Below are positions 2,631 to 63,842 of a stretch of DNA of 64,000 nt, piece after piece (the stretch's first letter is position 1; each line of letters begins with the position of its first letter). Both the position numbers and the translations under genes were made by a program. The notes beneath the pieces are model-generated. The model was not told the origin of the DNA and ran no database searches. It saw only the letters and a program-made list of their open reading frames with translations. Source of the DNA: Squalus acanthias (Eukaryota); NCBI GenBank assembly GCA_030390025.1, contig CM059432.1, positions 54,624,001-54,688,000 of the forward strand, in the 5' to 3' direction.

Positions 2631-3409
2631 AGTAGGACGCATGCAGCAGGCACACGCTAAACTTCGTTTTTGATTAAAAGAAATCTACCTTCCATATATC
2701 TAACTGCAATGGGTCAGGTATATCTTAGTGTAATCTTTACTTAAATGTAGCTGCTGCAGCAATGACCTGGGGAGGAAATAACTACTTTAATTTTATTGCA
2801 CTGTCTGAGGTCATTACATCTGTAACACACTGATTATATTGTAATACAAAGGCATATAGGGCTAGAAATTGGGCTCCTTTGGGCCTCCTGTTGGTGCCTC
2901 CGGGGGGCGCTAATAGGGTGCAAATGGGTTGGCGACCGGGCGCAGCGATATCAACGCCTCCCGCTAAATTCGGCGGGTGTTTTGCGGCGTTGCGCCCTGA
3001 TCTCCTGCGCCCAGAATCGTGACCTCATTGCCGTCTGCAGCGTCCCGGATGAAAAATTCCCTCTCGCCCCCTGCTTGTGCGCCTGCCGTTAACAACGACA
3101 GGTAGAGGAGGCGGCTTTCAGTCAGATGTCCGCTGGAGGAGCGCTATTTAAAGGCGTCCACATCCGGTTTAGTTTTCATCGGCCAACAATACTGCTTTGT
3201 TAGTTTCACATAGGCAAAGAGGCCTTTTGACCGATTTCAGCGTTTTGCATTTGAACGAGTGTTCTGGCACATAAAGATTCTTCAGTTTCATTGAGGGGAG
3301 ATTTGAAAGTGCAATATTTGTATCCTTTCATGGGGCTATACTGGCACTGGACCTCACCCTCCAGCATCAATGTCTGAGGCAGAGACAGAGATTTGAAAAT
3401 GTGGCCAGA

Positions 3410-4468
3410 GGGAGGAGGGCCAACAGGGCTCTCAACAGGAGGTCTTAACCACCCAGGGTATTCCGGCAGCACTTCTCCGACATAAATTTAACTGAGGAGC
3501 AGTGTCTTAGAAGGCTCCACTTCAACAAGGAGGTGGTCACAGAGCTCTGCCACCTCCTGCAGCCAGACCTCAAGCCTCAGATCAGGACCACCATGGCTCT
3601 CTCAGTGGCAGTCAAGGTCACCGTCGCCCTCAATTTCTATGGCAGTGGATCATTCCAGTGTGCGACAGGCGACATCTCCAACATCTCCCAGTTTGCCGTC
3701 CATTGCTCCACCCGCGAGGTCACAGATGCCATGTACAGAAGGAGAAGGGACTACATTTCCTTCCCCATGACCAGAGAGAAGCAGGACGAACGTGCATGTG
3801 GCTTTGCCAGGATAGTGGGCTTCCCCATGGTGCAGGGGAACAATCCTGAGGTATTCTGTAACCACAAAGGCTACCACTCACTTAATGTGCAGTTAGTGTG
3901 CGACCACACACGGCGAATCCTCACCACCAATGCCCGTTATCCTGGCAGCAGCCACGATGCCTTCATCCTGCGCCAGGCTGGTGTGCCAGATCTATTCCAT
4001 CCACCGCATCAAGCTTGTGGCTGGCTGCTGGGAGACAAGGGCTATCCGCTCTCCACCTGGCTCATGACTCCCCTCCGCAACCCCAACACTCCTGCCCAGC
4101 ATTCATATAATGAGAGCCATGCTGCCACCAGGAACATCATTGAGCAGACCATCGGAGTGCTCAAGCAACGGTTCCGCTGCCTTGACCGCTCGGGAGGAGC
4201 CCTCCAGTACTTGGCTGAGCGGGTGTCACCATTTGTCGTCGTCTGCTGCATGCTGCACAACTTGGCCATTATGAGGGCGCAGCCATTGCCACCAGGCATT
4301 CTGCACCACCTCAGGAGGAGGAGGATGAGGACGAGGACGGAGAGGAGCAGGAGGAATAGGAGGACGAACAGCAGCGATGGAGGAGGCAGCCACTCAATCG
4401 GCGTTCTGCAAGGTTGGTCTGTGACCGCCTCGTTTCCAGTGACTTCGAGTCCTCTTTCCAGTTGCTGA
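3410..4468 (+). pseudogene. Harbinger DDE transposase (HARBI1-like, DDE_Tnp_4) pseudogene
   Basis: Motifs ALNFYGSGSFQ, KGYHSLNVQLVCD, YPGSSHDAFIL, LLGDKGY, IEQTIGVLKQRFRCLD, CCMLHN. The first catalytic 'IDCTH' segment present in other copies is deleted; upstream stop and 3' frameshift. Confidence 0.9.
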
Positions 4469-4599
4469 GCACGTCACCATCATTCCATCACTTTGTGATT
4501 CCACACCACACCCCAGAACTGAAATGAGACACAGCACCAAATCTGCAACATTCCAGTAATAAACATATCAAAAACCATTAGCCACATAAATACAACAAT

Positions 4600-5300
4600 A
4601 TTGACTAATCACCCTTGTGCAAACCCTTACTTCCCCTCTTTACAGTGCCTTTTCCTAATCTACTGCTCCTACGTAGTCTGTCCCCAGTGGCTGCAGCAGG
4701 GCTGGTGGAAGGCTGCTGAGTGTCGGTGCCAGAGACTACAGATGGCCTTGCAGGGCACCCTCGACCAGCTCTGGGTCTGGAAGACCTGACTGTACACTGT
4801 ACCACCTCAGGCTGGGCGGCGGCAGTCTGGGCTGGCTGGATGACAAGGGCAATGGCGGAAAAGCAGTGGTGGGATCAGGAATGCTGTCATCCTGAGAGAG
4901 GACAGAAGGTTCCTGCTCCACTGACCCACTCCCACTCCCCCGGGACAACACCTCAGCATCCCTACCAACCTGCTGGAGCACAGATTGCTGGCCTGGTGCA
5001 ACACCGTGAGACCCCCCGGTGGACTGTGGTGGACCCAGCGATGATGGCAGCAGTCAGAGCTTTTGTGGCATCAAGCTGAGACTGCATGAGAGCAGTCTGA
5101 GACTCGATGGCAGCAACCATTAACTGCATTACAGCACTAAGACTTTGCGTCGCTTCCGCCTGTGCTGCAATGGAAGCTGCCACATCACCCGACACACGTC
5201 ATGAGGTCTGGATCCACACGGTCTCTCTGGGAGTCCACTATCCTCTGCACAGTGGAAATGATGGGCTCCATGGTGTGCGCAGAGCTCTGTGCAATGTTGG
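4600..5300 (-). pseudogene. 3' part of the Harbinger second (Myb/SANT) gene, Ala/Gln-rich coiled-coil-like region
   Basis: ORF 4962-5195 'AIAAQAEATQSLSAVMQ...' is homologous to 42700-43160; convergent with the transposase as expected. Confidence 0.55.
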
Positions 5301-5404
5301 AGGCAGACTCCTTCACCTTCAAAATTTCAAAAGTTAGCGCTCCAAACGGGGCAAAACCCAATTTCATCCCCGAAAACTTTACTGCTGGCTATTTAGTCAG
5401 TGCT

Positions 5405-8021: not shown

Positions 8022-8982
8022 GTTTCGAAGAGCAATCCAGTTAGTCCCACTCCCCCACTCTTTCCCCATATCCCTGCAATTTTTTCAAGTATTTATCCAA
8101 TACTATTTTGAAGGCTACTATTGAATCTGTATCCACCACCCTATCAGGCAGTGCTTTCCAAATCCTAACCACTCGTAAAATAGTTTTTCCTCATGTCGCC
8201 TCTGGTTCTTTTGTGAATCACTTTAAATCTGTGCCCTCTCGTTATCGACCCTTCAGCCATTGGAAACAGTTTGGGCTGGATTTTGATACTGGGGCGGGTT
8301 GGGGTCGTGTCATCCACTTTTCGTGTTATCCACCCGACTGCAATTGGATGTGGGAGATTGATGCGATTTTCACCTAATTGGGCAATTAGTGTGTGGGAAC
8401 CCATGACCCAATTAGTGTTTTCAGTCTGAAAGTTGCCTCTGATGATGTCATCATTGCTGCTGCATTGAAGGTCTGCAAAGACTGCCTGGCCTTTGCTGTG
8501 AGAGGACCTGGATGCAAAATGAGCATCAGCAGCCCTAAGTCTGCTCCCAGATATTTTTGCACCACTACTCCCAGATATGTCTCCCATCCACTACCACTCC
8601 CAGCCAGTCAGCCAGCCATAGTCAGGTATCCAAATGTGCTCCCGCCAGGTTTCACATTCATGGTTCAGAACAAGCATGCTACACGTAGAAAAAGGGTTAA
8701 AATCACAAAGGCCTTTCAAAATGGCATTATAGAGGCAATTTAGTGCTTGTTAAGGGCCTTAATAGCCTATCCTGCCTCTTAGAGGCGGGACGGAGTCGGG
8801 ACCAGCAGACACGATTTAATGAAAATTGCGTGGAGGTGGGATGGAGGCGGGCTTGTGCCCGCCCACCAGTTTTTCGCAATTTTAACCCCCCACACGCCTC
8901 CAAACCCACCTCACGGGTCAATGAAAATCCAGCCCTTTCTCTTTATTTACTCTATCTAAATCCTTCATGATTTTTAAACACA
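8022..8982 (-). mobile_element. CR1 LINE 3' fragment interrupted by a MITE
   Basis: 'LFPMAEGSITRGHRFKVI...DMRKN' on -; sequence resumes after 8935. Confidence 0.8.
8273..8935. mobile_element. Harbinger-type MITE (same family as 33756-34430, opposite orientation)
   Basis: TIR gggctggatttt / aaaatccagccc; 3-bp TSD TTT. Confidence 0.9.
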
Positions 8983-22145: not shown

Positions 22146-22509
22146 CAGGAAACTTTCGTTTATCCGGCATCGACGGGACCGGCGTGGTGCCGGTTTATCG
22201 AAAGTACCGGATAACGGAGAGTTATATCTATCGAGGCTATTTTTAACAAAGAGACTCCAGGCAGCGCGGGACTGCAGTGTTTCGGACTTCCGACTGACTA
22301 AATCGGCGTTCGCGGACTCGGACTTGGAATCGGGATCGGCAACATTGCCGGTTATTTGAGAGGAGTTTTCGGAGCCCTCGGCGTTCGCGGAGACTCGACT
22401 GCGACTCGGCAACATTGCCGGTTATTTGAGAGGAGTTTTCGGAGGATGATTTTTGCCGGTTAAGCGAGAATTCCGGATATTTGGGTGCCGGATAAACGAA
22501 AGTTTCCTG
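22146..22509. mobile_element. Tc1/mariner (pogo/Tigger-like) MITE
   Basis: Perfect 24-bp TIR caggaaactttcgtttatccggca; TA on both sides; internal ~39-bp direct duplication; CpG-rich, so probably young. Confidence 0.9.
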
Positions 22510-22902: not shown

Positions 22903-23277
22903 TAGGGTTGCCAACTCTGGTTGGACATATTTCATGAGGTTTCATCAAATGATGTCCAACCTCCAACCACCCCACCCCCACGCTCCTGCCATTGGTCACC
23001 CAACATGTCCATCTTCACGGTGCACCGCCTTTTAAACCAATCAGAAAACTCTTTATTACCCGATAGGATGAATCTTTGACTGTGAGTCAAACAGCCGTTT
23101 TCCCATCTCTGATGTTATTATAAGTAAAAACTGAAGTGTTGAAAGAAAATGAAAAAGAAACATATTTTTTTTTTTATGTCCCTATGATTTTTCTCTCTGG
23201 TTGCTCACAGCAGTGTCCTGGAGATAATCATTAATTCCTGGATACTCCAGGTTGATTCTAGAGGGTTGGCAACCCTA
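22903..23277. mobile_element. hAT-type MITE
   Basis: TIR tagggttgccaac / gttggcaacccta; 8-bp TSD tttatatt (22895-902, 23278-85). Confidence 0.9.
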
Positions 23278-23343: not shown

Positions 23344-26300
23344 CATAGAAACATAGAAAAATAGGAGCAGGAGTAGGCCATTCAGCCCATTGAGCCTGCT
23401 CCATCATTAAATATGATCATAGCTGATCCTCTATCTCAATACCATATTCCCGCTCTCTCCCCATACCCCTTGATGCCTTTTGTGTCTAGAAATCTATCTA
23501 TCTCCTTCTTAAATATATTCAGTGACTTGGCCTCCACAGCCTTCTGTGGTAGAGAATTCCACAGGTTCACCACCTTCTGAGTGAAGAAATTTCTCCTCAT
23601 CTCAGTCCTAAATGTCCTATCCTGTATCCTGAGACTGTGACCCCTCGTTCTAGACGCCCCAGCCAGGGGAAACATCCTCTCTGCATCCAGTCTGTTTCAA
23701 TGAGATCCCCCTCTCATTCTTCTAAACTCTAGTGAATACAGGCCTAGTCGACCCAATCTCTCCTCATACGACAGACCTGCCATCCCAGGAATCAGTCTGG
23801 TGAACCTTCGCTGCACTCCCTCTATGGCAAGTATATCCTTTCTTAGGTAAGGAGACCAAAACTGCACACAGTACTCCAGGTGTGGTCTCATCAAGGCCCT
23901 GTACAACTGTAATAAGACATCCTTGCTCCTGTACTCAAATCCTCTTGCAATGAAGGCCAACATACCATTTGCCTTCTTAACTGCTTGCTGCACCTGCATG
24001 TTTGCTTTCAGTGACTGGTGTACAAGGACACCCAGGTCCCTTTGTACATCAGCATTTCCCAATCTAGCACCATTTAAATAATACTCTACCATTCTGTTTT
24101 GTAAAGTTTCGCAATTATCGCAATTCAAAATAACAAGATAGAAGCAGGTTCGTTTGATCAGTTTTATTAAACGAAGTGCTGTCATGATATAAAGGACACA
24201 GAAGCCTGTAAAATGGCCACTGCGCATCGTGGCAGAAGCTTCCAGAAGTACAGTGGGCAGACAAGATGGCGTTCGAATAAACATTTCAATATAAGACTGG
24301 ATCATACTCGATAAACACTGATAAAGACAGGATGCAACCTGTTTGCATTTGTGACAATAGCAAAAGATATAAGTGCTGGAATCGTTTTCCATGCACAAGT
24401 AAGGACCATTGTACTGGGCAATCGAAGGCCCATCCAGACACATCAATACACAAATACCCCCACGGCTCTACAATGAGAGAGACATCGACGGGTGATTAAG
24501 CAAGCATTCGGGGGCCCCCAAAACCCAGCCAGGGAGGCTCCTAGCCGGTTCGACAATGGGAAAAACATTAACGGGTAGTTGGCCAGTTTCAGGTGCTACC
24601 GAAACCCGTTAAGGAAAGAATAGCCCCACGCTGGGAGTTTTGAGCGCCAATATTATACAAAGGACAAACATTAAGATTTGGGCGGGAGATAAGGGAACAC
24701 AGCACTATAACTATAGTGAACAAATGTCCATCGCTCTCTTGATTTTCGGCTCTTATTCGCTCGAATCGTCTCTTATTCTCTTATCTCGCTGCTGACTGCT
24801 GAACTCTTATTCGCTTGCCGCTTCATGGACTCGCTTGACTGGTGAGCTTTTGATTGTCTCTCTGGACTTTGTTGACTCTTGACTTTTAACCGTACTGGTC
24901 GGTTATTCGAATGTTGGGTGGAGCTCAATCGGAACGAGCCGCCTCGACAAGGGCAAGTGCACCATCCCGAGAGTCGGTAAACGGTGTCTGGACCCGAAGG
25001 CCCAAAAAGACAAGACGAAATGACAAGAAAAGAAGAAGAATCCACGTGCCGCCACGGTCAGTAAACCCCGACCGCGCCCGAAAATATAGAACTCATTTCT
25101 TGAATTCTACGGGTTATTGCACGAACTGGTTTGGGTCCATCGACTTCTTCATCACAACAGGAAGACTCTTCATTGAATTCTACCGACAACTGGTGTCGGT
25201 ACAGGAAGACTTTTCTTTGAGTTCTACAACCGTGCCCGAGTTCTGTCGAGTTCTTCGTGACAACGGGGAGCCCGGCCTGCTTGTCGCAGCAGTGAAGATA
25301 AACAAGTGGGGTACAGAGACCCCTCCAAACACGTGACAGTCAGGCGCTGCAGCGAACGAGCCGAGTGCCTCACTTTAAAATTCTCCGAAGTATCACGAGT
25401 GGTGAGCATGTTTCCCGATCCTACAAATCTAGATGTAGTGTAGGTATTGATAAGGGAGGGTGGTTTTTATTAAGGATAAAGTATAATGTGTTCCCCTTTT
25501 TACGATGTGCCGTGCGTTCTTCATTACCATAGACCAAGCTTTATGAATGTATGTATACTTGTACTCTCGTTAATTTGCGCCTATGACATGTACTTCATGA
25601 TCTTGGACGCTATGCAATAAAGATTTCCATTTCGTACTATTCAACCGGGTCTATTTGAGTTTTTCTCTGCATTACTGCTCTCGCACCTAAGTCCAGTGTT
25701 AGAACCGTAAGGGCGAGTGGGTCGAACCACTCACAGGTGCTTATTGCAACAAGGCTGGCCGGAGACCAGAGCAAGCAATAGTATTAGGCAACGAAGGCCT
25801 AACCTCGCACCAGCACCATCTGTGATGCAAGCACGACAAAACCCCTTACGGTTTTTCCTACCGAAGTGGATAACTTCACATTTATCCACATTATACTGCA
25901 TCTGCCATGTATTTGCCCACTCACTCAACTTGTCTAAATTGCCTTGAACCCTCTTTGCATCCTCCTCACAACTCACAATCCCACCTAGTTTTGTGTCATC
26001 AGCAAACTTGGAAATATTACATTTGGTTCCCTCATCCAAATCATTGATATATATTGTGAATAGCTGGGGCCCAAGCACTGATCCCTACGGTACCCCACTA
26101 GTCACCGCCTGCCACCCCGAAAAAGACTCATTTATTCCTACTCTCTGTTTCCTGTCTGTTAACCAATTTTCAATCCATGCCAGTATATTAACCCCAATCC
26201 CATGTGCTTTAATTTTGCACACTAACCTCTTATGTGGGACTTTATCAAAGGCCTTCTGAAAATCCAAATACACCACATCCACTGGTTCTCCCTTATCTAT

Positions 26301-27226
26301 TCTATCAGTTACATCCTCAAGAAACCCCAGTAGGTTTGTCAAACACGATTTCCCTTTCATAAATCCATGTTGACTTTGTCTAATCTCGTTGATATTTTCT
26401 AAGTGTCCTGTTATCACATCCTTTATAATAGACTCTAGCATTTTCCCTACTACTGATATTAGGCTAACCGGTCTGTAGTTCCCTGTTTTCTCTCTCCCTC
26501 CTTTTATAAATAGTGGGGTTACATTTGCCACCCTCCAATCTGCAGGAACTGTTCCATAATCTATAGAATTTTGGAAGATGACAACCAATGCATCCACTAT
26601 TTCCATGGCTACCTCTTTTAGTACTCTGGGATGCAAATTATCAGGCCCTGGGGATTTATCAGCTTTCAGTCCCATTAATTTCTCCAGCACTATTTTTTTA
26701 CTAATAATAATTTCCTTTAATTCCTCCTTCTCACTAGATCCTTGATTCCCTAGCATTTCTGGGAAGTTATTTGTGTCCTCTTCTGTGAAAACAGAACCAA
26801 AGTATTTGTTTAATTGCACTGCCATTTCCTTGTTCCCCATTATAAATTCTCCCATTTCTGACTGTAGGGGACCTACATTTGTCTTCACTAATCTTTTTCT
26901 TTTTACATACTTCTGGAAGCTTTTACAATCCGCTTTTATGTTCCTTGCAAGTTTACTCTCATACTCTATTTTTCCCCTCTTAATCAATCTCTTGGTCCTT
27001 TTTTGCTGAACTGCTCCCAATCCTCAGGCTTGCTACTTTTTCTGGCAACTTTATATGACTCCTCTTTGGATCTAATACTATCCTTAATTTCTTTTGTTAG
27101 CCATGGTTGGGCCGCTTTTCCTTTTGTGTTTTTGCGCCAGAAAGGAATGTATAACTTTTGCAATTCATGCATTCCTTGCTTAAATGTTAGCCATTGCCTA
27201 TCCACCGTCATGCCTTTTAATGAAGC
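23344..27226 (-). mobile_element. 5'-truncated CR1 LINE interrupted by solo LTR-C
   Basis: RT ORF pieces 26085-27020, 25851-26078, 23436-24099; tail (tttctatg)n. Confidence 0.95.
24100..25850 (+). mobile_element. Solo LTR (1751 bp) (LTR-C) inserted in CR1 RT
   Basis: tgtaa...cttacg termini; TSD GTTT; CR1 sequence rejoins across it; TATA at 24706, AATAAA at 25616. Confidence 0.9.
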
Positions 27227-27514: not shown

Positions 27515-28315
27515 GATCTATACTCAATGGAATACAAGCCTAATCTATGCAACCTGTCCTCATAATTTAACCCCTTTAGCCCCGATATAATTCTGGTGAA
27601 TCTGCGCTGCACCCTCTCCAAGGCCAATGTATCTTTCCTGAGGTGCAGTGCCCAGAACTTAACATAGTACCCCAGATGCGGTTTAACCTGAGCTTTATAC
27701 AAATATAGCATAAACTACACCCCTTTGTATTCCAGCCTCCTTGAGATAAAGGCCAACATTCCATTAGCCTTTTTAATTAATTTTTCTCACCATTTAATAA
27801 TTCTCTGATCTATCTTTCTTAGGTCCAAAGTGGATGACCTCACACTTCCTACATTGAACTCCATCTACCACAGTTTTGCCCACGCACTTTAATCTATCCC
27901 TATGCAACTTTCTAATCCCATCTACACTACTTACTGTGCCACCTAACTTAGTATCATCAGCAAACTTGGATATACTGCTTTTGGTTCTTCATCTAATTCA
28001 TTGCTAAATATAGTGAAAAGCTGAGGCCCCAGTACAGATCCCTGGTTGACACCACTAGTACATATCCATTATCCCTACTCTCTGTCTCCTACCTCCTAAC
28101 CTCTTTTCTACCCATGTCAATAGGTTGCCTCCAATTCCATGTGCTTTTGTTTTTGTCAACAGTCTCGTGTGGAAACTTATCGAATGCCTTCTGAAAGTCC
28201 ATATAAATAACATCCATAAACACTTCCTTATCTACCACATTAGTAATCTCCTCAAACAATTCAATTAGGTTAGTTAGACATGACTTTACAAATTCATGCT
28301 GGCTCTCTCTGATCA
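27515..28315 (-). mobile_element. Degraded CR1 RT fragment
   Basis: ESQHEFVKSCLTNL...[26 protein letters not shown]. Confidence 0.85.
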
Positions 28316-30859: not shown

Positions 30860-31119
30860 ATTTGAGATTTCCACTACACTTTGTGTGAAAAAGTGCTTCC
30901 TGATTTCACTACTGAATGGCCTAGCTCTAATTTTAAGATTGTACCTTATTATTCTGGATTTTCCCACCAGAGGAAAGAGCTTCTCTGTATCTACCCTATC
31001 AAATCCTTTTATCATTTTAAACACCTCATTTAGATCACCCCTCACCCTTTTAAACTCAAGAGAATACAAGCCAAGTTTATGCAACCTGGTTCATAATTTA
31101 ACCCTTTAAGCCCTGATAT
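30860..31119 (-). mobile_element. CR1 3' fragment
   Basis: LGLYSLEFKRVRGDL...KHFFTQSVV. Confidence 0.8.
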
Positions 31120-31591
31120 TGTGAAGGAATAAGCTATATTCAGAAAAATACACCATTCTATGAAATAATTCTGGCCTTTGTAACATGACAAACTGGGCTT
31201 GAAAATCTAAAAACCTAACAATGGAGAAGCTGTGAACAGCATTCAGGCTATTGAGATAAGATAAGTTGTTGACACTGAATCAATAGCCTTATTGAAACAG
31301 GAGGTTGGAGGTTGCTGAAAGTCTGAAGCTTTGGAAAGAACACAATGGTACACCCAGTTAAGGTGTTTTAAAGTACATTTCATAAACAGGCACATAAAAG
31401 AAGAAGAAACATATGCCTTCGTAAAAATGACATCAAGTAAAAGAAACACCTGCCGTCAAATCGTTTTTATGTTAAACTTAGAACACCTACGGACAGGAGA
31501 CATAAGTCTGTGTTACAACCAGCTGAGGTGACATAAGAATTGCATAGATCACCCTAGTTGAGGTTGTTTTAATTTACACGTCGTAAAAAGA
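31120..31591 (+). mobile_element. Truncated LTR (5' part) of the LTR-D family
   Basis: Starts tgtgaaggaataagc and matches the reverse complement of ~56730-57201. Confidence 0.85.
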
Positions 31592-32949
31592 ATTTTCTGG
31601 GGTGACAGCAGGCCGGGTGGGAAAGTGTTTTTTTTTGACAGCAGGTCAGGACCCCGCTGTCAACCCACTGCCACATGCCTTTCCCAATGTTTGTCAGCAC
31701 TGAGCAGACCCGACCAGCAGCGGTGGGGGATCCAATCAATCTCATTATTGCCTTGCTGACAGATCATAAACAGGATTTTTTAACTTACCTTTTGACTTTA
31801 ACTTCATGGCCATGGGAACCACACTATTTGGGGACCACGGCTGTCAACCTGAGGCAGGAGTTCAGTGGTCATTGCTCCAGCTGATTCTTGACAGCTTCAA
31901 ATGTACAGTAAAAGCATCCACCTAACATATCTTCACTTGCCTCAGCCACAAGCTGTTTCTCAGTCCATTTCCAGTACAGATTCTGCAGGCTTTCCACTTT
32001 CCACTCTCCATCTAGTATCACCTCTTTGGAAGAACTCTCTCACCATTGACAGAATGCTTCTGCCATCTCTCCTTCACCTGTCATCTATTCCATCAACATG
32101 GGTGCACTTTATACTGTCTCACCTTGGTCCTCAGAATCCCACCATGATAAGCCCCAACACCAGCAGCACCAGGCACACCAGCAGCGCCAACAACAACACC
32201 AACCTTCTCCACAATCACCTGATGCTGCACAGGATAGAGGACATCAGCACCCGAGCACATTGCTGCCCAGGAGGCCAGGGATGGCCTCACCATGGCCAGA
32301 TTTACTTCACTTGACGCTGTACACCCTGGCTGCCACATGATGCGCCAGGTTGGCACCACCCCACACCAACACCATATAGCATCCCTACAATGTCCAAGCC
32401 ATTCCTTTCACACCCACCACCATTGCGGGGGGTACTGTTATGTCTCACTATTCACTGGAACTCAATAAGCCACTTACAAAGGTGCACACAAATCTACCCA
32501 AAAACGCAAAGTGTTGAAAATAAAGGTTTCAATGTTTGACACCGCATTAACAGAAACTTCACATGAACATTGGAAAAAACACCCAAGTGGCTACCCTTGT
32601 GTGTTGTTAGTTGGTATGATTGCACTAGGATGAGGGTCAGAGGTAGCTAGTGAGATGGGGATGTGATAATGTAGATAGAGAGAGAGGGATGGAAGGAGGT
32701 GCAAGATAAGTTGGTGTGAATAAGGATGTTCAGGGGTAGGGTATGGAAGGCAGAGTGATGGGGATGTGATGAGAAGCACAGCAGGATGAAGGTGAGTGTG
32801 GTTTTGTATTAACATAGAAACATAGAAGATAGGAGCACGAGTAGGCCATTCGGCCCCTCGAGCCTGCTCCACCATTCAATGTGATCATGGCTGATCATCC
32901 AAATTCAGTACCCTGTCCCTGCTTTCTACCCATATCCCTTGATCCCTTA

Positions 32950-35900
32950 GCCTTAAGAAATATATCTAACTCCTTCTTGAATATATTTAATGAATTGGAC
33001 TCAACTGCCTTCTGTGGTAGAGAATTCCACAGGTTCACCACTCTCTGGGTGAAGAAATTCCTCCTCATCTCAGTCCTAAATGGCTTACCCCATATCCTTA
33101 GACTGTGACCCCTGGTTCTGGACTCCCCCGCCATCGGGAACATCCTTCCTGCATCTAGTCTATCTAGTCCTGTTAGAATTTTATAAGTTTCAATGAGATC
33201 CTCTCTCATTCTTCTAAACTCTAGTGAATACAAGCCCAATCGACCCAATCTCTCTTCATACGTCATTCCTGCCATCCCAGGTATCAGTCTGGTGAATCTT
33301 CGCTGCACTCCCTCCATGGCAAAAACATCCTTCCTCAGATAAGGCGACCAAAACTGCACACAATACTCAAGGTGTGGTCTCACCAAAGCCCTGTACAACT
33401 GCAGCAAGACATCCTTGCTCCTGTACTCGAATCCTCTCACTATGAAGGCCAACATACCATTTGCCTTCTTAACCGCCTGCTGCACCTGCATGCTTACCAT
33501 CAGCGACTGGTGCACAAGGACACCCAGGTCTCATTGCACTTCCCCTTTTCCCAATCTATTGACATTCAGATAATAATCTGCCTTCCTGTTTTTGCCACCA
33601 AAGTAGACAACCTCGCATTTATCCACATTATACTGCATCTGCCATGCATCTGCCCAATCACCCAACCTGTCCAAATCATACTGGAGTTTCTCTGCATCCT
33701 CCTCACAGCACACACTCCCACCCAGCTTTGTGTCGTCCGCAAACTTGGAGATATTGGGCTGGATTTTGAATGACCCGTGGAGTCGGGTTTGGAGGCGTGT
33801 GGGGGGTTAAAGTAGCAGATTCGGGGGTCCAGACCCCATCCTGACTCCAACACGCCTCCACGCAATTTAGACAAAATGGGTCGTGGGGTTCCCGACTCCG
33901 TCCCGCCTCCAAGAGGCGCGAGAGGCCATTAACGCTCTTAACTATCCCTAAATTGGCTCTGTAATGCCATTTTGAAACGTTTTAGCTAGTTTAACCCTTT
34001 TCCGACATGAAGTACGCCTGATGTGAAACACTCCAGTGAAACCTGGTGGGAGCACAAGTGGATAGCTGACTAGCAGCTGCAGGTCCACTATTACAACGGA
34101 GATGTGATGATGGTAGTAGTAGTATCTCTCTCACTCTCTCTCTCTCTCTCTCTTTAGAGATGCTGCTCATTTTGCATCCAAGTCCTCTCACACCAAAAGC
34201 CAGGCAGTCTCTGAGACCAGGCAGGCAGTCTCTGACCTGCAATGATGACATCATCAGAGGCGACTTTCAGACTGAAACCACTAATTGGTTCATGGGTTCC
34301 CACATGCTGGAACTCAATTACCCAATTAAGTGAAAATTGCATCACTCATCCACATTAATCTGGAGTCGGGGGGGCAACACGAAATGTGGGTAACACGACC
34401 CCAACCCGACCCCAAGACAAAATCCAGCCCATTACATCTAGTTCCCTCGTCTAGATCATTGATATATATTGTGAATAACTGGGGTCCTAGCACCGATCCC
34501 TGCGGTACCCCACTAGTCACTGCCTGCCACTCGGAAAAAGACCCGTTTATTCCAAGTCTTTGCTTCCTGTCTGCCAACCAGTTTTCTATCCAAGTCAGTA
34601 CCTTACCCCCAATCCCATGTGCTTTAACTTTGCACGCTAATCTCTTATGCGGGACCTTGTCGAAAGCCTTCTGAAAGTCCAAATACACCACATCCACTGG
34701 TTCTCCCTTATCTATTCTACCAGTTACATCCTCAAAAAATTCCAGTAGATTAGTCAAGCATGATTTACCTTTTGTAAATCCATGTTGACTTTGTCCGATC
34801 CTGTCACTGTTTTCCAAGTGCTCTGCTATTACATCTTTTACAATGGACTCTAGCATTTTCCCCACTACCGATGTCAGGCTTACCAGTCTATAATTCCCCA
34901 TTTTCTCTCGACCACCTTTTTAAATGGTGGGGTTACATTAGCTACACTCCAATCCATGGGAACTGTTCCAGAGTCTATAGAATTCTGGAAGATGACCAGC
35001 AATGCATCTATTATTTCTAGGGCCACTTCCTTAAGTACCCTAGGATGTAGATTATCAGGCCCTGGGGATTTATCGGCCTTCAATCCCGTCAATTTCCCTA
35101 ACACCACTTCCCTACAAATACTGATTTCATTCAGTTCCTCCCTCTCATTAGACCCTATGTTCCCCGACATCTCTGGGAGGTTATTTGTGTCCTCCTTTGT
35201 GAAGACAGAACCAAAGTATGTATTTAATTGGTCTGCCATTTCTTTGTTCCCCATTATAAATTCCCCTGATTCTGACTGCAAGGGACCTACGCTTGACTTC
35301 ACCAATCTTTTTCTCTTCACATATCTATAGAAGCTTTTACAGTCAGTTTTTATGTTCCCTGCAAGCTTACTCTCATATTCTATTTTCCCCCTCTTAATTA
35401 ATCCCTTTGTCCTCCTTTGCTGAATCCTAAACTGCTCCCAATCTTCAGGTTTGCTGCTTTTTCTGGCCAATTTATATGTCCTCTCCTTGGATCTTATGCT
35501 ATCCCTAATTTCCCTTGTTAGCCATGGTTGAGTCACCATTTTTGTTTTATTTTTATGCCAAACAGGGATGAACAAATTCTGTAGTTCATCCATGCGATCT
35601 TTAAATGTTTGCCATTGCCTATCCACCATCAACCCTTTAAGTAACATTCCCCAATCCATCCTAGCCTACTCGCGCCTCATCCCATCGTAGTTTCCTTTAT
35701 TTAAATTCAAGACCCTAGTCTCTGAGTCAACTACTTCACTCTCCATCTTAATGAAGAATTCTATCATATTATGATCGCTCCTCCCCAAGGGGCCTCGCAC
35801 AACAAGATTGCTAATTAATCCTTTATCATTACACAATACCCAGTCTAAGATGGCCTGATCTCTAGCTGGTTCCTCGACATATTGGTCCAGGAAACCATCC

Positions 35901-36574
35901 CGTATACACTCTAGGAATTCCTGCTCCACAGTATTGTTACTAATTTGGTTAGTTCAATCTATATGTAGATTGAAGTCACCCATGATAACTGCTCTGCCCT
36001 TATTGCACGCATCTCTAATTTCCCATTTAATGCCATCCCCAACCTCAGCATTACTGTTTGGGGGTCTGTATACAACTCCCACTAACATTTTCTGCCCCTT
36101 GGTATTTCTCAGCTCTACCCATACAGATTCCACATCATCAGAGCTAATATCCTTCCTTACTATTGTGTTAATCTCCTCTTTAACCAGCAATGCTACCCCA
36201 CCTCCTTTTCCTTTTTGCCTGTTCTTCCTGAATATTGAATACCCCTGGATGTTGAATTCCAAGCCCTGGTCACCCTGGAGCCATGTCTCCGTAATCCCAA
36301 TTATATCATATCCATTTACATCTATTTGCACAGCTAATTCATCCACCTTATTACGAATGCTCCTTGCATTAAGACACAAAGCCTTCAGGCTTGTTTTTTT
36401 AACACTCTTAGACCATTTAGAATGATTGTTTACTGTGGCCATGTTTGATTTATGCCCTTGATTTCTCTGACTTCCACTTTTGCTTTTCTCCTTCCTGTCT
36501 TTTGTTTCTATCCTTGCTTCCCTTTCCTCTGTCTCCCTGCACAGGTTCACAACCCCCTGCCATTTTAGTTTAAA
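32950..36574 (-). pseudogene. CR1 ORF2: APE endonuclease and reverse transcriptase
   Basis: [53 protein letters not shown]; stops, frameshifts and a MITE insertion. Confidence 0.92.
33756..34430. mobile_element. Harbinger-type MITE in CR1 RT
   Basis: TIR gggctggattttg / caaaatccagccc; TSD ATT (33753-55, 34431-33). Confidence 0.92.
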
Positions 36575-37515
36575 CCCTCCCCAACAGCACTAGCAAACAC
36601 TCCCCCTAGGACATGGGTCCCAGCCCTGCCCAGGTGCAAACCGTCCAGTTTGTACTGGTCCCACCTCCCCCAGAGCTGGTTCCAATGTCCCAGGAATTTG
36701 AATCCCTCCCCCTTGCACCATTCTTCTAGCCACATATTCATCTGAAATATCCTTCTATTTCTACTCTGACTAGTACGTGGCACTGGTAGCAGTCCTGAGA
36801 TTACTACCTTTGAGGTCCTATTTTTTAATTTACCTCCTAACTCCCTATATTCAGCTTTTAGGACCTCATCCTGGTTTTTACCTATATCGTTGGTACCTAT
36901 ATGCACCACGACAACCGGCTGTTCACCCTCCCCCTCCAGAATGCCCTGCAGCCACTCCGAGACATCCTTGACCCTTGCACCAGGGAGGCAACATACCATC
37001 CTGGAGTCTCGTTTGTGGTCGCAGAAACGCCTATCTATTCCCCTTACAATAGAATCCCCTATCACTATAGCTATCCCGCTCTTTTTCCTCCCCTCCTGTG
37101 CAGCAGAACCACCCATGGTGCCAGGAAGTTGGTTGCTGCTGCCTTCCCCCGATAAGCCATCCCCCTCAACAATATCCAAAGTGGTCTATCTGTTTGAGAG
37201 GGGGATGGCCACAGGGGACCCCTGCACTACCTGCCTGTGCCTACTACTCTGCCTGGCGGTCACCCATTCCCTTCCTGCCTGTGCAGCCTTTACCTGCGGT
37301 GTGACCAACTCATTAAACGTGATATCCACGACGTCCTCAGCATCGCGAATGCTCCAGTATGCATCCATTCGCAGCTCCAGCGCCGCAATGCGGTCTGCCA
37401 GTAGCTGCAGCTGGATACACTTCCTGCACACATGGTCATCAGGGACACAGGAAGTGTCCCTGATTTCCCACATAGCGCAGGAGGAGCATGCCACGGGGCC
37501 AAGCTGTGCTGCCAT
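36565..37515 (-). pseudogene. CR1 ORF1: CxxC zinc finger, coiled coil and SGNH esterase (one in-frame TAG at 37186-37188)
   Basis: CSSC...CRKC; VIGDSIVR, VHIGTND, DGLHL; ORFs 37186-37515 and 36565-37179 are in the same frame. Confidence 0.9.
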
Positions 37516-37828
37516 GACTTACCCTTTAATTAATTTAAATTAAATTAAATCAAATCAATACCACCAATTACACTACAATTAAATGTTATACTCAAGGGCC
37601 CTTGTTTACTAGCAATCCCCGCTACACAACAGAGACCTTAGAAACTATAACCACAAAATTAAGACCTTCTAAACTTTATAAATTACTAACCTCAACTGTC
37701 AAACTATAGAGTAGTATAAATACTCACCTGGCCGTAATCACCCAATCAGCTGCTTCCTCTTGCCCGCGTCACTTTTTGAATCGTGATGTGGCTCTGGAAC
37801 GCTGCCGCTGGTCTGTGAGATTGGTAAG

Positions 37829-37975
37829 CCTCTGCAAAAAAGCCCGCGAAAGTGAGTTTAAGTACTCACTGAACCGCTGCTCTCTGCTCCTCCCGACTCC
37901 GACCTCTGCAAAAAAGCCCGCGAAAGTGAGTTTAAGTACTCACTGAACCGCCGGTCTCTGCTCTTCCCGACTCCG
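37829..37975. repeat. Two copies of a 74-bp tandem repeat in the CR1 5' UTR
   Basis: cctctgcaaaaaagcccgcgaaagtgagtttaagtactcactgaaccg at 37829 and 37903. Confidence 0.9.
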
Positions 37976-38304
37976 GCCCATAAGCATACAGAGCGAGTCA
38001 TGGGAGAGCCTTGGTGCAGCCCTGTGCCTTTGTGCAGTCATTGTCAGTGTTTGCAGCACCTCAATGCTGTAGAACACTGACAGTTGGCCACGGTCCCTTT
38101 AAGGAAACCGGCTGATGACGCATCATGAAATGATGTCACCAGACCCGCTTCCTCTAATTGGCCCAGGAAATGCGCTGGGAGGGCTTAACAAGCCCCATCA
38201 ACGTAAAGTAATTTCACAGAGCGGGGTGGAGCCAGCAGCGGGGTCGGGACCGGCCACCAACATCGCCCACACCGGAACCGCCGAGGTAAGTAAAATCGTG
38301 GCCT

Positions 38305-44867: not shown

Positions 44868-45637
44868 GGGCTAGAAATTCTGTAACGGCCCGTTTGGGGC
44901 GATAACTTCTGAAATCTCGGAAAAGTATCGCGAGGCGATAATCATTTTCTGGTCCCGGGAAATTGAGCTTTAGCGCTCCAAGAGGGAAGTGGAGCGCTAA
45001 ATCAAGCACTAATCACCTCTCTTAGGGTGCTAAAGTGAGAGAGCGGGGCGGTAGCAGCAGAGCGCTGAACAATGTGGAGTGCAAAGATACTGGCATCGGA
45101 GGCTGCTTCCCTCGCTTAAAGGGAAGGACGAATGATGGTGCACAACATACTTCTGCTCAGTTCTGTGTTGCCAGGCGACCTGCGCAACTGCCATTACAGC
45201 CCCAAACACTCTCAGAGAGTGGAGGGCTCGGACATCTCGCAGGAATAAAGCCTCGAAAACTTTCAGCAGGCACCAGACTGGTGAAAAGAATAAAGTTTGG
45301 CCTACCTGAAAACCACTGCCTTTAATTAGCGCTCCCCAAGTGGCCAGCCGAGTTGACAACGCCTCCTCTTCCTGCCATTGCTGACACCCGGCGATACAGC
45401 AGGGGGCGGGAGGCAATTTCACATCCAGGGCGGTAACGGGGCGCTGTGCACTTTATGACGTCGCGATCTGCGAGGCGCTAGAGGGCAAGGCGGTAAGTGT
45501 TAGTGTCAGCGCTAAACCGGCAGGGAAGTTCGCAGGCGTCGCTGAATTCGCCGTGCCTGGTCGCTAACCCCTTAGCGCCCCATTACCATCCCCCCCCGGC
45601 GCTAACGGGAGGCACAAAGCAGCCGAATTTCTCCCCC
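44868..45637. mobile_element. Harbinger-type MITE (GC-rich)
   Basis: gggctagaaattc / gaatttctccccc; TSD AAA; subterminal region homologous to 2859 and 63770. Confidence 0.85.
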
Positions 45638-53049: not shown

Positions 53050-53218
53050 GGGGGTGATTTTGCCAATGGGGGCATGTTGGAAGCGGGACTGCTGCTTGTC
53101 GGGTTTCAGTCCCGCCTCCATCGACTTGTGGCCAACCCACGCTATTTTCCCTTGATTGACCTTGTTAAGCCCGCCCAGTGGGCTTAACAAGTCAAAAAGT
53201 TTTGGCAAATTCCAGCCC
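53050..53218. mobile_element. Small Harbinger-type MITE in CR1
   Basis: Imperfect TIR ggggtgattttgccaa / ttggcaaattccagccc; internal hairpin cttgttaagccc...gggcttaacaag. Confidence 0.7.
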
Positions 53219-57201: not shown

Positions 57202-58014
57202 ACCTCATCCCTCTTTTTACCTATGTCATAGATACCGATATGGACCACGCCCTCTAGCTGTTCACCCTCCCCCCTCAGAATGTTCTGCAGCTGCTCAGCG
57301 ACATCCTTGACCCTGGCATCAGGGAGGCAACATACCATCGTGGAATCACGTCTGCGGCCACAGAAACGCCTGTCTGTTCCCCTAACTATCGAATCCCCTA
57401 CCACTATTGCTTCCCTGATCTTCCTCCTCCCACCCCTTTCCCCACCCCACCCCCCATATAGCTGAGCCACCTGTGGTGCTGTGGATTTGGCTCTGGCTGT
57501 ACTTCCCAGAGGAACCATTGCCCTCACCAATACCGGTTGGAGAGCAAGATGCAGTCAGGGGACTGCTGCACTACCTGCCTGGTCCTCCTTGTCTGTCTGG
57601 CAGTCACCCATTCCCTCTCTGCCTGCACACTCTTACACTGCGGGGTGACCTGAAACATGCTATCCACGTAGCTCTCAGCCTCATGGATGTACCGCAGTGA
57701 CACCAGCTGCTGCTCAAGCTCTGAAACCTGGAGTTTGAGCTCCTCCAGCCGACGGCACTTCCTGCACACGTGGTTGTCCAGGACGCTGGAAGAGTCCTGG
57801 AGTTCCCACATGGCACAAGATGTGCATTCCACGGGACTGAGGTGTCCTGCAATGCCTCTATTTATTCGACTATTAACTAACTTACAGAAATAAACTTAAG
57901 ACTAAGGGGGAAAAATTCGTGATCGCCAGCAAAGTTGCCGGTGTTACCAGCAACTGCAATTAACGGCCGCTGGAAATGGCTGCAACACTAACCGAGTGAA
58001 ATTGGTCTGGGGGG

Positions 58015-60055
58015 AATAAGAACATAAGAACATAAGAAATAGGAGCAGGAGTAGGTCATTTAGCCCATCGAGCCTGCTCCGTCATTCAATAAGATCATGG
58101 CTGGTCTTCTACCTCAACTCCACTTAACTGCACTATCCCCATATCCCTTGATTCCCTTAATATCCAAAAATCTATCGATCTCTATCTTGAATATACTCAA
58201 CGACTGAGCCTCCACAGCCCTCTGGGGTAAAGAATTCCAAAGATTCACCACCCGATGAGTGAAGAAATTTCTCCTCATCTCAGTCCTAAATGGCCGGCCC
58301 CTTATTCTGAGACTGTGACCCCTGGCTCTAGACTCCCCAGTGAGGGGAAACATCCTTCTTGCATCACCCTGTCAAGCCCTGTAAGAATTTTGTATGTTTC
58401 AATGAGATCACCTTTCATTCTTCTAAACTCCAGAGAATATAGGCCTAGTCTACTCAATCTCTCCTCATCCCAGGAACCAGTCTGGTGAACCTTCGTTGCA
58501 CTCCCTCTATGGCAAGAAAATCCTTCCTTAGGTAAGGAGACCACAACTGTACACAATACTCCAGGTGTGGTCTCACCAGGGCCCTATATAATTGCAGTAA
58601 GACATCTTTACTCTTATACTCAAATCCTCTTGTAATAAAGGCCAACATACCATTTGCTTTCTTAATTGCTTGCTTTACCTGCATGTTAACTTTCAATGAT
58701 TCATGTACAAGGACACCCAGGTTCCTCTGAACATCAACATTTCCCAATCTCTCACCATTTAAAAAATACTCTGCTTTTCTATTTTTCCTACCAAAGTGGA
58801 TAACTTCACATTTCTCCACATTATATTCCATTTGCCATGTTCTTGCCCAATCACTTAGCCTATCTATATCCCCTTGAAGCCTCTTTGCATCCTTTGCATC
58901 CTCCTTAAAACTTACATTCCCGCCCAGCTTTGTATCATCAGCAAACTTGGATATATTGGACCAAACATTCGGGTCTCCACGGGTGAGTACGTGCTGTGTA
59001 CTCACCCGTAGACCCAATGAAAGTGCCGGTTTCGCGCATGCACTGCGCATGTGCTGGAAACCGGAACTTCTGTTCCCTTGAAGGAAGGGGTTCGGAGGTC
59101 AAATGCGTGCGCCGGAGAGGCAGCGCGCACGCAGCGAACTTCGGGGTTTTTTTCAGGTTTCTCCGTGAGGGTACGTATGAAGAAGCTGCGCAGGAAAAAA
59201 GGAGGCGCAAGGCCTGCTTTTAACAAGGTAAGTGATGAATTAAGTACAATTTAAACATTTTTTCAACAGGTTTATCTTCTTTACATACTTTAAAGAAAGG
59301 TAAGTTTATTTTTAGCACCGTTAAAAAGTGTAATTAATTTTTTCAAAAATTTTAATTTTTGTTTAAAGTAGTTAATTTATGTAATTTATAGTTATTTTAA
59401 AAATGGGATTTTTTTTAAATTTATTTGAAGTTTTAGTGAGGTTTTGGGGCCGATCTCTATTCATAGATTTGACAGGCCTTCCTGTCCGATTGGCTCTCCG
59501 TGGCCCACGTGATCCCAGGGGACACTTCGAACTAACTGTGCCCCTGGGATACACAAGCACTGCGTGCCGGCAGCTGCAGGAGGCCCAGGAGCTGAATTTC
59601 ACGCGGGCCCAAAGCACAACGGCAGGCGCGTTAGGTAAGTACACGCGCGGTCCTTGCACCTGCGGGAAGCCGGAGAGCCGAATTTCTGGCCCATTACATT
59701 TAGTCCCCTCATCCAAATCATTGATATAGATTGTGAATAGCTGAGGCCCAAGCACTGATCCTTGCGGTACCCCACTAGTTACAGCCTGCCAACCCAAAAA
59801 TGACTCGTTTATTCCTATCTCTGTTTTCTGTCCGTTAACCAATCCTCAATCCATGCTAGTATATTACCCCCAAACCCATGAGCCCTAATTTTGTTTAATA
59901 ACCTCTTGTGTGGCACCTTATCGAATGCCTTCTGAAAATCCAAATACACCACATCCACTGGTTCCCCCTTATCTAATCTGCAAGTTACAACCTCAAAAAA
60001 CTCTAACAGATTCGTCAAACATGATTTCCCTTTCATAAATCCGTGTTAACTCTGC
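58015..60055 (-). mobile_element. 5'-truncated CR1 LINE with MITE
   Basis: RT motifs; tail (ttcttatg)n. Confidence 0.93.
58958..59692. mobile_element. Harbinger-type MITE in CR1 RT
   Basis: TIR ggaccaaacattcgggtctcc / ggagagccgaatttctggccc; TSD ATT (58955-57, 59693-95). Confidence 0.88.
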
Positions 60056-61795
60056 CAGGAGATAGGTGGCGCAGCACTCATCTTCCATGCAATGCCATCC
60101 TGGAGGGATCATGATGAAGTTCCTGTCCAGGTCCGGCATTGCAGCCTCCCACAGCCTCTGTGAGTGAAGCTGTGGAGCTCGCAAGGAATTGTGGGCAATG
60201 AAGAGGTTTGAGAATTAAAGGGGCCATGCACACTGAAGCAATACAAAATAAAACGCAGTGAATCAATACATTTTTCAGCCCTTTCTGCCTTTTAAGAAAT
60301 ATTCAACATTTAAAAAAAGTTCCAAATGTGAATATTCAGCTATTAAAGCTGAATTACCTTCCTAACCTCAACAAATGGGAAAACTGCCTCAGTACTAACA
60401 CAATGGCTCAGCAAGCCAGGGAAGGGGCACCAAGGATCACAAATACAGCACTCCAGCTTTGTGCAGGGGAACAACACTGCGAGAGCTGCCCTCTACCCAC
60501 AGGGGCCAGGAGGCCCTCCAGAAAGAATGATGTGGGAGTACAACACTAAGGCCGTCACTGCCAGCAGTGTTGCCCCCACCACCTGGTTCCAGTGCCCAAA
60601 GAAGCTTCATGACCTCAGACCACTGGTCAAGGTCAGTGAATGCATCTTCAAAAGCCGTCTCCTACCAACTGCACCACTAGCCTCACACACTGCTCAATGC
60701 ACAACCCCCAATCACTCACCTACCAACAATCTGCACCAATCACGAGGTACATCTCCCATTCCTAGCCTCACCTCACCTCCTTGGAGGAGACGGTGTAGGC
60801 CATTCTTGGCAGGGGCATGGTTGAGCCCTTGGCAAGAGGTGGGGCTGAAAAGATACAAGATGCAGGTATCCTCGTATGTTACCCTCCTTCTGGCATGCAC
60901 CTCTTGCTTTCCCACCCTCAGCACAACTCCACCCTTGTGCCTTCCTCATTTCACACACCCAAGAAATGCAGCCTGCCCAGCCAGTGGGTCAACAAGAAGA
61001 GGCAGCCTGCCCAACCAGTGGGACCGCAGGCAGATGATTCTATCCTGGATATCCCAGCCACAAAGGGCTGTCTGGGATGCATCCTTCCATCTGATTCCTC
61101 CTCTTTGGCTTCCTCCTCTTCTGCATCTTCCTCTTCTGTGTCTTCCTCTTCCCTCTGCAAGCGGATGCTGTAAATGTGAAATGACAGCATAAAATGCTAG
61201 AAATACTCAGTTGGTCAGGCAGCATGTCGACCTGAGACATGAACTCTGTTTTTCTCTCCACGGATGTTGCGTGACCTGCTGAGTACTCGCAGCATGTTCT
61301 GTCTTCTCAAAGGCCTTCATTTACCATCTGAGCCCTTGCAAGCATCCAGCAGCACTCCTTACACACTTAAAAAATCTTTTCACATCTATTGCAGCAAGCC
61401 ACCACTTCAATAAAATCAAAAAAAAAACAGTCCAAACCCTTAAATTCAAACTTACCTGAATGATGTGTGTGTCCCTTTAAGAGCTGCAGACATCGCCATT
61501 GTCAGCCTGCTTGCACGCCAGGTTAACCTGGCGTGCTTAGAACCCAGTGCTGAATTCAGCGCTAGGGTCGAAGTTCACATTGGTGACGTTAAGTCGGTGT
61601 TGCATGCCGATTGACGTCACCACACTGCCATTTTTTTTTCCAGGGCGCTGCGAGTTACTGGCAGCGCAAAGTGGGAGAGGAATATGGCAGCCATCGCAGG
61701 AACCGCCACCAGCTGGCGAAAGAATGACGGCCACCATTTTATCGCCATTTCATGGCACTACAGAGTGGCAGTAAGTAGATGAATTTATAGCCCCC
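60056..61795 (+). mobile_element. Deleted Harbinger element with Myb/SANT remnant
   Basis: MAQQAREGAPRIT..., TWFQCPKKLHDL; homologous to 1-530; right end gaatttatagccccc. Confidence 0.7.
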
Positions 61796-62564: not shown

Positions 62565-63842
62565 GCTCGTTCCAAGAAAGGAGGGAGACAGAAAGCAGGA
62601 AACTATAGGCCAGTTAGCCTAACATCTGTCATTGGGAAAATGCTGGAATCCATTATTAAGGAAGTAGTAGCAGTACATTTAGAAAATCATACTACAATCA
62701 AGCAGAGTCAGCATGGTTTTATGAAAGGGAAATCGTGTTTGACAAATTTACTAAAGTTCTTTGAGGATGTAACGAGCAGGGTGGATCAAGGGGAACCAGT
62801 AGATGTTGTGCATTTGGATTTCCAGAAGGCATTCGATAAGGTGCCACATAAAAGGTTACTGCACAAGATAAGAGCTCACGGGGTTGGGGGTAATATATTA
62901 GCATGGATAGAGGATTAGCTAACTAACAGAAAACAGAGAGTCAGGATAAATGGGTAATTTTCAGGTTGGCAAACTGTAACTAGTGGGGTGCCACAGGGAT
63001 CAGTGCTGGGGCCTCAACTATTTACAATCTATATTAATGACTTGGATGAAGGGACCAAGGGGTAAAAATTGGGTAGCTACCTTCGGATTAACGCCCCGAA
63101 AAATGTTGGCACCCCCGCGGCCGATTTTCCCAAGTAGCACCCCGAGAGGGAGGAGGGGCACTACTGGAAGCTCCCCGCGTCTCTCTTGGGGCGCTGCGAG
63201 CCAATATCGTGGCGCTACGTGCCGCGGTACTGCAGGCCTTCCTCCCCTTATTAAAGGGGAGGGGCCTGGCGCAGTGCATCCCGGTGCCCAGCTGGGCCAC
63301 CAGGGATTGGAGTGCCGGCAAATGAGCCCGGCACTCAAGAGGAGTGCCGGGCTCACGGAGAGCAACCAGCACCCTGCGGGGGGGCTTCACGGGGGCCGGG
63401 GACAGCAACGGGGGCAGGTGCTGGCAGGCAGCCAGCAACAAATATGGCCACCCATCACCTCCCCTTTAACTAGCACCGCCCCGGCCGCAGGTAGTCCCCC
63501 CTGACCCCGGCGGATATAGCGTCCGGCGGTAAGCCAGGGGTCGCCACCCAATATTACAGTGGGGGCGTGAGTGGGGCGCTGCGCACAGCGATGATGTCAT
63601 CACCAGCAGCGCAGCGCCGCGCGGCGCTAACGGTTAGCGCCGCCACTAACCTCCCGCTGAATTTCGCAGGAGGCGTTAGCGGTGCCGCGCCCAGGCGCTA
63701 GTTGATTTGCGCCCCATTAGCACCCTCTTATGGCGCTAACAGGAGGCGCAAATCAACCGAATTTAGCCCCCAAGTGTACTGTTGCCAAATTTACTGACAA
63801 TACAAAGATAGGTGGGAAAGCAAGTTGTGAGGAGGACACAAA
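62565..63842 (+). mobile_element. CR1 RT fragment with MITE insertion
   Basis: [34 protein letters not shown]; resumes 63771-63842. Confidence 0.9.
63059..63770. mobile_element. Harbinger-type MITE in CR1 RT
   Basis: ggggtaaaaattggg / ccgaatttagcccc; TSD CAA (63056-58, 63771-73). Confidence 0.88.

Follow-up and report, generated by a model that had tools for sequence, protein, structure and literature searches.

Why should two transposons that have nothing in common inside have entered the same nucleotide of a LINE, in two different copies of it? The question is raised by the window, the whole stretch of 64,000 nucleotides analysed here, in which two MITEs of PIF/Harbinger type interrupt the reverse transcriptase (RT) of CR1 at one homologous base. 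A preliminary description of this DNA had taken the coincidence as a sequence-specific hot spot of CR1 and as a safe haven for the DNA transposons that also disables the LINE. We propose, with a probability of about 0.7, that the site is a passive TE-in-TE hot spot at which a target motif shared by Harbinger elements happens to be spelled by conserved codons of the CR1 RT.

Two unrelated MITEs duplicate the same Asn codon

The elements at the site and their junctions are as follows.

33756..34430, strand not applicable: MITE M1, 675 nt, non-autonomous, PIF/Harbinger type, with a 13-nt perfect TIR, GGGCTGGATTTTG
33753..33755, + strand: left TSD of M1, ATT, which is AAT (the Asn codon) on the CR1 strand
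34431..34433, + strand: right TSD of M1, ATT
58958..59692, strand not applicable: MITE M2, 735 nt, interior unrelated to M1, with an imperfect TIR of ~21 nt
58955..58957, + strand: left TSD of M2, ATT
59693..59695, + strand: right TSD of M2, ATT
26016..26018, + strand: empty homologous site with a single ATT, in the CR1 copy 23344-27217

The preliminary description had reported that both MITEs duplicate the same ATT, and the TSDs, the alignment and the reading of the CR1 strand agree on this: the duplicated triplet is the AAT of E-G-T-(R/K)-C-N-I-S-K-F-A-D-D on the CR1 sense strand. At 26016 the CR1 copy described earlier as empty indeed holds a single ATT in matching context (gcaaacttggaaat-ATT-acatttgg), and this empty paralogous site bears out the 3-nt TSD of M1 and M2. 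The hosts of M1 and M2 and the empty copy align without a gap as far as the ATT, the two filled copies diverging one base later, and the Pfam RVT_1 match of the M1 host stops at the M1 junction. Across each insertion the two halves of the host continue each other exactly, and the events are separate ones at one homologous position, as at a TE-in-TE hot spot.

That the two MITEs are unrelated inside, differ in their TIRs and sit in separate CR1 copies had also been claimed, and the interiors agree with it. The local alignment score of M1 against M2 is 22, no better than that of shuffled sequences (mean 21.7; 46 of 100 shuffles reached the score), whereas M1 against its relative at 8273 scores 480. 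The TIRs of M1 and M2 are unlike each other and both belong to the GGGC..GA(A/T)TT type common to the transposase-bearing elements of the window; the TIR of M2 is decayed, 17 of its 22 outermost bases being complementary. Several GGTAAG/GGTGAG words in the interior of M2 (59020-59640) resemble splice donors, and stretches rich in pyrimidines there resemble acceptors.

The host copies and the independence of the insertions

Four CR1 copies bear on the history of the site.

32813..37978, - strand: near full-length CR1, host of M1, with a GDSL-like ORF1, endonuclease and RT (Pfam RVT_1, Exo_endo_phos, Lipase_GDSL_2)
58021..60054, - strand: 5'-truncated CR1, host of M2, within the Harbinger 57906-61795
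23344..27217, - strand: CR1 copy that holds the empty site and is split by an LTR-like element at 24100-25850
62577..63842, + strand: CR1 host of a third MITE, M3

The name CR1 is a provisional one, shared with the label of the preliminary description rather than taken from a repeat library. The host LINE carries an APE endonuclease and RT in ORF2, an esterase-type ORF1 and, as its 3' end, a short tandem repeat, copies bearing AACATAAG-type repeats at their 3' ends and some of them being 5'-truncated. In the part that matches, its RT and named RT proteins of skate and chimaera are 87-90% identical. The M1 host, itself nested within a larger Harbinger, carries three stops and one frame change in ORF2 besides M1. 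The M2 host is without the endonuclease and the N-terminal RT, and its match to the long copy extends only to 34793.

Between the hosts of M1 and M2, identity amounts to 80.5, 76.1 and 78.9% for three separate segments, and each of them is 81-87% identical to the empty copy. None of 11 outgroup-polarised comparisons gave most support to a grouping of these two hosts, and nine gave it the least; in trees the M2 host pairs with the M3 host (89/99) and the M1 host with the empty copy (81/87). Since the hosts are not sisters, the insertions of M1 and M2 are independent, at one homologous base in two CR1 copies. A single ancestral insertion, afterwards replaced or converted, or copied along with its host CR1, would explain why TSD and position are identical, and the preliminary description had itself raised conversion or replacement as the reading that would undo its own. 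We consider it highly improbable, because the hosts of M1 and M2 are different CR1 lineages, placed on different branches. Moreover, M1 and M2 share no similarity inside, and copy-specific differences persist in the flanks of the junctions. The unrelated interiors and the non-sister hosts largely refute a single ancestral insertion.

Harbinger-type elements and other repeats of the window

The further Harbinger-type elements to which the argument refers are listed here.

63059..63770, strand not applicable: MITE M3, a third family, 7 nt from the site, TSD CAA
63843..64000, strand not applicable: left end of another Harbinger-type element, which follows ACAC-AAA in the CR1 copy that hosts M3 and extends beyond the window
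8273..8935, strand not applicable: second copy of the M1 family, TSD TTT, at another CR1 position (3' part of ORF2), 74% identical to M1
53050..53218, strand not applicable: MITE M5, short and of Harbinger type, in a CR1 of another lineage, with an imperfect TSD, TAT/TCT
2859..5371, + strand: decayed transposase-bearing Harbinger of the same TIR type, ORF 3449-4468, Pfam DDE_Tnp_4 E 2e-32, taken here as representative of the mobilising families
44868..45637, strand not applicable: Harbinger MITE M4 outside CR1, TSD AAA, which supplies two non-CR1 half-sites
57906..61795, strand not applicable: Harbinger outside CR1, TSD TAA/TGA, which holds the CR1 host of M2

Decayed Harbingers are plentiful here. 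By hand tally, seven Harbinger-type elements of the window lie in CR1 (at 8273, 33756, 38303, 53050, 58958, 63059 and 63843) and 12 outside it. As CR1-homologous DNA makes up 22% of the window, 7 of 19 Harbinger ends in CR1 is no significant excess (p = 0.11). Excluding the cluster at the site, the four remaining Harbinger ends in CR1 are at other CR1 positions. Within the window M1 has one further copy (8273-8935), and no second copy of M2 was found. M3 can also be read in an alternative register, 63060-63771, with TSD AAG and a distance of 6 nt from the site; the 3-nt TSD is exact in either register. Its host reads ACT instead of AAT at the Asn position.

The short TIRs of M1 and M2 start with G/A and match in type those of the transposase-bearing element at 2859-5371, as is typical of PIF/Harbinger MITEs. 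The interiors of the MITEs (elements of 675 and 735 nt) were covered by the Pfam scan to the extent that they form parts of two junction ORFs. Matches to Myb_DNA-bind_5 under the curated cut-off (E 4e-4 and 0.017) occurred in two of four candidate pieces of neighbouring elements; these pieces and the decayed DDE_Tnp_4 gene are at most candidate partners of M1 and M2.

Nesting occurs in both directions, three CR1 copies sitting within Harbingers: CR1 32813-37978 within Harbinger 31700-38303 and itself holding the MITE 33756-34430, CR1 58021-60054 within Harbinger 57906-61795 and holding the MITE 58958-59692, and CR1 13785-15434 within Harbinger 12870-16160. Such nests of Harbinger, CR1 and Harbinger MITE, two of them with three layers, show that the activity of the two classes overlapped. 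The elements at 12870 and 38303 are of one family (78-87%). M5 is 169 nt long, with unlike TIRs, and a few host bases are seemingly missing at its position compared with the paralogous CR1 at ~41993; it could be two adjacent insertions fused by recombination, or a product of plain decay.

Other repeats share the window. Four solo-LTR-like elements of 1.3-1.8 kb (10332-12135, 16721-18385, 24100-25850 and 55885-57201) have TG...CA(G) ends and exact 4-nt TSDs, with a partial relative at 31119-31591. Those at 16721-18385 and 24100-25850 are related; the latter splits the CR1 copy with the empty site, and 55885-57201 splits another CR1. A near-perfect hairpin lies at 6936-7141 (102-nt arms, 97%, 2-nt loop). 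A MITE of 364 nt at 22146-22509, flanked by TA at either end and bounded by perfect TIRs of 24 nt, we take to be Tc1/mariner-like. Further elements with TIRs lie at 22903-23276 (TAGGGTTGCCAAC ends) and at 28312-28816 (505 nt, 46-nt TIRs), the latter at the 5' end of a CR1 fragment, and a tandem array at 62005-62362, of 65-nt units with 97-98% identity, resembles the 5' region of a CR1-like element.

A palindromic target motif and its fit to the CR1 codons

The motif A-N-N-Y[TSD]R-N-N-T, which is palindromic, was tested on element ends that lie outside CR1 in the window. ANNY stands beside the TSD at 12 of 15 non-CR1 half-sites, compared with a background of 0.13 (p 9e-9), these half-sites having been picked by hand with the motif already known and several of them coming from single ends. 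Among the same 15, A is found at -4 in 14 and A/T at -2 in all, and a purine is found at -6 in 12 and A/T at -7 likewise in 12. A scan by TIR score that was blind to the flanks found the motif at 15 of 31 ends with a score of >= 9 and at 4 of 10 with a score of >= 12 (background 0.126); it is diluted by chance matches, of which a shuffled window gives 8-15 at a score of >= 10, and includes CR1-internal look-alikes. The consensus of the non-CR1 ends in the window is roughly W-R-n-A-n-W-Y[3-nt, A/T-rich TSD]R-W-n-T-n-Y-W. A target logo from non-CR1 insertions, which the preliminary description had proposed as a check, was thus obtained within the window, and the extended target preference that it had compared to zebrafish Harbinger3 holds up, since the palindromic motif of the non-CR1 ends fits the Harbinger3_DR target.

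On its sense strand the CR1 site reads A-T-G-T [AAT] A-T-h-T, and the letters of the motif can be assigned to codons, the A belonging to Lys/Arg, TGT being the Cys codon, and Ile and Ser together supplying the right half. The site reaches 3-7 bits in five of the eight CR1 copies that span it, the top two being both filled copies. The fit is imperfect: one half of the CR1 site has G at -2, a position that is A/T in all 15 of the non-CR1 half-sites, and the first target matrix put the site just 17th of 1347 positions in the empty copy. Around the second copy of the M1 family, at 8273, A stands at -4 in each half-site and Y is missing at -1. The M3 host scores from below zero to zero at the Asn position; M3, in this copy without the motif at the Asn codon, went 6-7 nt off to a better-scoring position (5.3, as compared with -2.4 at the Asn position).

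How surprising is the coincidence

The probability of the coincidence was modelled by placing seven insertions on the CR1 DNA of the window, and all values are per window. A pair at the same base has a probability of ~0.006 if insertion is uniform; the bare motif raises this to 0.13, the motif and an A/T-ended TSD to 0.24, and matrices give 0.05-0.09. With five insertions the values are 0.004 (uniform) and 0.10 (motif), only four of the seven sites being placed on the reference by blastn. As the pair has a probability of 0.006 under uniform insertion and of 0.05-0.24 with a motif, uniform insertion is disfavoured, and the models suggest that a general motif would be nearly enough to account for the pair. 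In five motif models the site ranks 4th to 11th of 4050 CR1 positions and receives 1.6-3.9% of the predicted insertions.

What the motif leaves over is the cluster of three MITEs in 7 nt, together with the disfavoured base at -2. Three of the four site-spanning copies of this CR1 clade hold a MITE within 7 nt, and the probability of three MITEs within 7 nt is 0.003-0.022 per window under the motif models. As no fewer than 147 windows of this genome have been looked at, a 1% cluster is expected somewhere in the genome, and one window alone is no proof of a hot spot.

Searches beyond the window

Contigs of four runs (X1, X17, X20 and X7), drawn from 22 runs and representing one run with the same organism code and three others, were aligned to the empty copy (25852-27217). 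Between 44,163 and 81,450 contigs per run aligned to these 1.4 kb, and therefore this group of CR1 is very abundant. Among the best 24 of 5,986 loose ends all tails were CR1 variants; none was TIR-like and none lay at 26015-26019. As the loose ends were ranked by support and CR1 variants are dominant among them, this blank is uninformative either way.

A pattern of the site DNA gave no locus in viral contigs, two in metagenome contigs and one in genome contigs, none of which runs on as CR1 or TIR. In protein searches with junction peptides the MITE part was covered by none of the best 120 of 804 matches, nor by any of 59 out of 59 matches in another search. A TIR-coded junction, N-G[LPVG], is present in 0 of 44 GPQLF-type CR1 proteins that reach past the site, a weak result. 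In one CR1 RT fragment, P0130, homology to CR1 is lost directly behind this Asn, the residues that follow …DEGTKSN being unrelated; the departure has no TIR-coded Gly and may be a frameshift. No Harbinger hot spot in CR1 is described in the titles and abstract openings searched, a set that covers few subscription papers and little of Repbase Reports.

A probable passive hot spot and its alternatives

We propose that related DDE transposases, assisted by Myb/SANT proteins, moved the families of M1 and M2 in trans, and that these transposases would share a palindromic target preference, most of whose motif is spelled by the (K/R)-C-N-I-S codons ahead of FADD. The same base was most likely hit twice because the shared preference met codons that spell the motif. 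Constraint on the protein would preserve the motif in many CR1 copies, such as the five of eight that score 3-7 bits, and as CR1 is presumably very abundant, one good site would be on offer thousands of times. By the model estimate the site would be one of several hot spots in CR1 and would take a few per cent of the CR1 insertions, and neither homing specific to CR1 nor a role in disabling CR1 would be required. In this form the sequence-specific hot spot of the preliminary description stands as to independent reuse and sequence preference; an outstanding genome-wide peak would go beyond the models, which give the site rank 4-11 and ~2-4% of insertions.

The same figures could also be read as a chance draw among ~40-100 effective motif sites in CR1, brought to notice by the screening of many windows, with no real peak at the site, which genome-wide would be used no more than other bases that match the motif. 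Motif-only probabilities of 0.10-0.24 per window for the pair are in keeping with such a draw, as is the lack of a TIR-tailed loose end among the best 24 of 5,986, although these ends, support-ranked and dominated by CR1 variants, say little. We nevertheless think this unlikely, as the site is in the top 11 under all five motif models. Conversely, the site could be far hotter than its motif predicts, a longer sequence, DNA shape or tethering at the RT segment before FADD drawing a large share of insertions. Three of the four copies of the clade being filled within 7 nt, at 0.003-0.022 under the motif models, and the double use of a site whose -2 base is absent from the 15 non-CR1 half-sites, both point that way. 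Against it, the four other Harbinger ends in CR1 are elsewhere in CR1 and 12 elements are outside it, the family of M1 itself also occupies another CR1 position, the 44 GPQLF-type proteins include none with a TIR-coded junction (a weak point), and a 1-in-100 cluster is expected somewhere among at least 147 windows; we therefore regard so strong a peak as improbable too.

A bolder version, to which we give little credence, is that several Harbinger lineages recognise the CR1 RT segment ahead of FADD beyond the generic motif and so home to the catalytic core of a retrotransposon. Homing would place most copies of a family at one site of the repeat, and in this small sample one of the two copies of the M1 family is at the site and 12 of the 19 elements are outside CR1. 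If homing were true, a large share of insertions would break the frame of the dominant LINE at a point where change would alter the active-site strand.

The passive hot spot, our preferred reading, needs no safe haven that disables the LINE, as had been suggested. The M2 host is 5'-truncated, so that a disabling role for M2 is rejected, and Harbingers are found elsewhere in CR1 and outside it as well. This host stops at 60054, inside the RT, and is bordered by Harbinger DNA on either side, so that it was most likely inactive from its own insertion onwards. M1 does interrupt the RT of its host, in which the stops and the frame change of ORF2 may be older or younger than this insertion. We consider the safe haven unsupported: insertions into dead repeats are tolerated generally, and neither selection for CR1 nor targeting of it is seen.

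The locus offers an example of how recurrent insertion at the same base may arise where codons under protein constraint, in an abundant LINE, spell the target motif of a transposase. Harbinger insertions at homologous positions of CR1 are accordingly unsafe as markers of common descent, and the target logo of these transposases can readily be read from insertions nested in CR1. If the site were used genome-wide in excess of what the motif predicts, transposons of one class would be aiming at the active site of those of another.

Comparison with known systems

The TSDs of the window do not follow the groups that Han et al. (2015, PMC4482050) distinguish by TSD among PHIS elements, i.e., PIF/Harbinger with TWA, Pangu with ANT, NuwaI with CWG and NuwaII with C-TNA-G. 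A strict 5'-TWA-3' is departed from by M1 and M2 (ATT) and by others (TTT, AAA, CAA), and the 5'-CWG-3' of NuwaI, the group that resembles Harbinger3_DR, is present in none of the paired elements. The ATT of M1 and M2 would fit the 5'-ANT-3' of Pangu, whose transposases form a clade beside IS5, and the M1-family copy at 8273 has TTT. What is alike, as far as that source describes PHIS elements, is the DDE transposase with a putative Myb/SANT partner, the short TIRs that start with G and the 3-nt TSD; what differs is that the TSD set of the families in the window fits no single group. The elements behave as non-autonomous PHIS elements would, and we leave them outside any one group.

The closest parallel for the motif is zebrafish Harbinger3_DR, whose target is given as AAACACCWGGTCTTT in a review (PMC3016246). 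In both, the 3-nt TSD lies within a longer palindrome, each half of which has a pyrimidine at -1, A/T at -2 and A at -4. The TSDs seen here are variable and A/T-rich (ATT, TTT, AAA, TAA, CAA), unlike those of Harbinger3_DR, and contain no CWG, and the preference is the looser one. Barley Harbingers are described as preferring a short TAA only (PMC5738225), and therefore a longer motif is not universal among Harbingers.

For the reuse of a position, the parallel lies in the human genome, where according to Levy, Schwartz and Ast (2010, PMC2836564) 82% of TE-in-TE insertion types depart from the background, hAT/MER1 DNA transposons reuse fixed positions in MIR3, L1 and L2, and palindromic motifs flanking the TSD can be derived from nested insertions. 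As in the human hot spots reported there, one position of an abundant host repeat has been entered by more than one inserted family. The human data comprise hundreds of events, whereas here there are two, or three within 7 nt; and the present case differs in that PIF/Harbinger MITEs have entered a CR1 of a cartilaginous-fish-like genome, at a base that lies within a protein-constrained motif of the RT.
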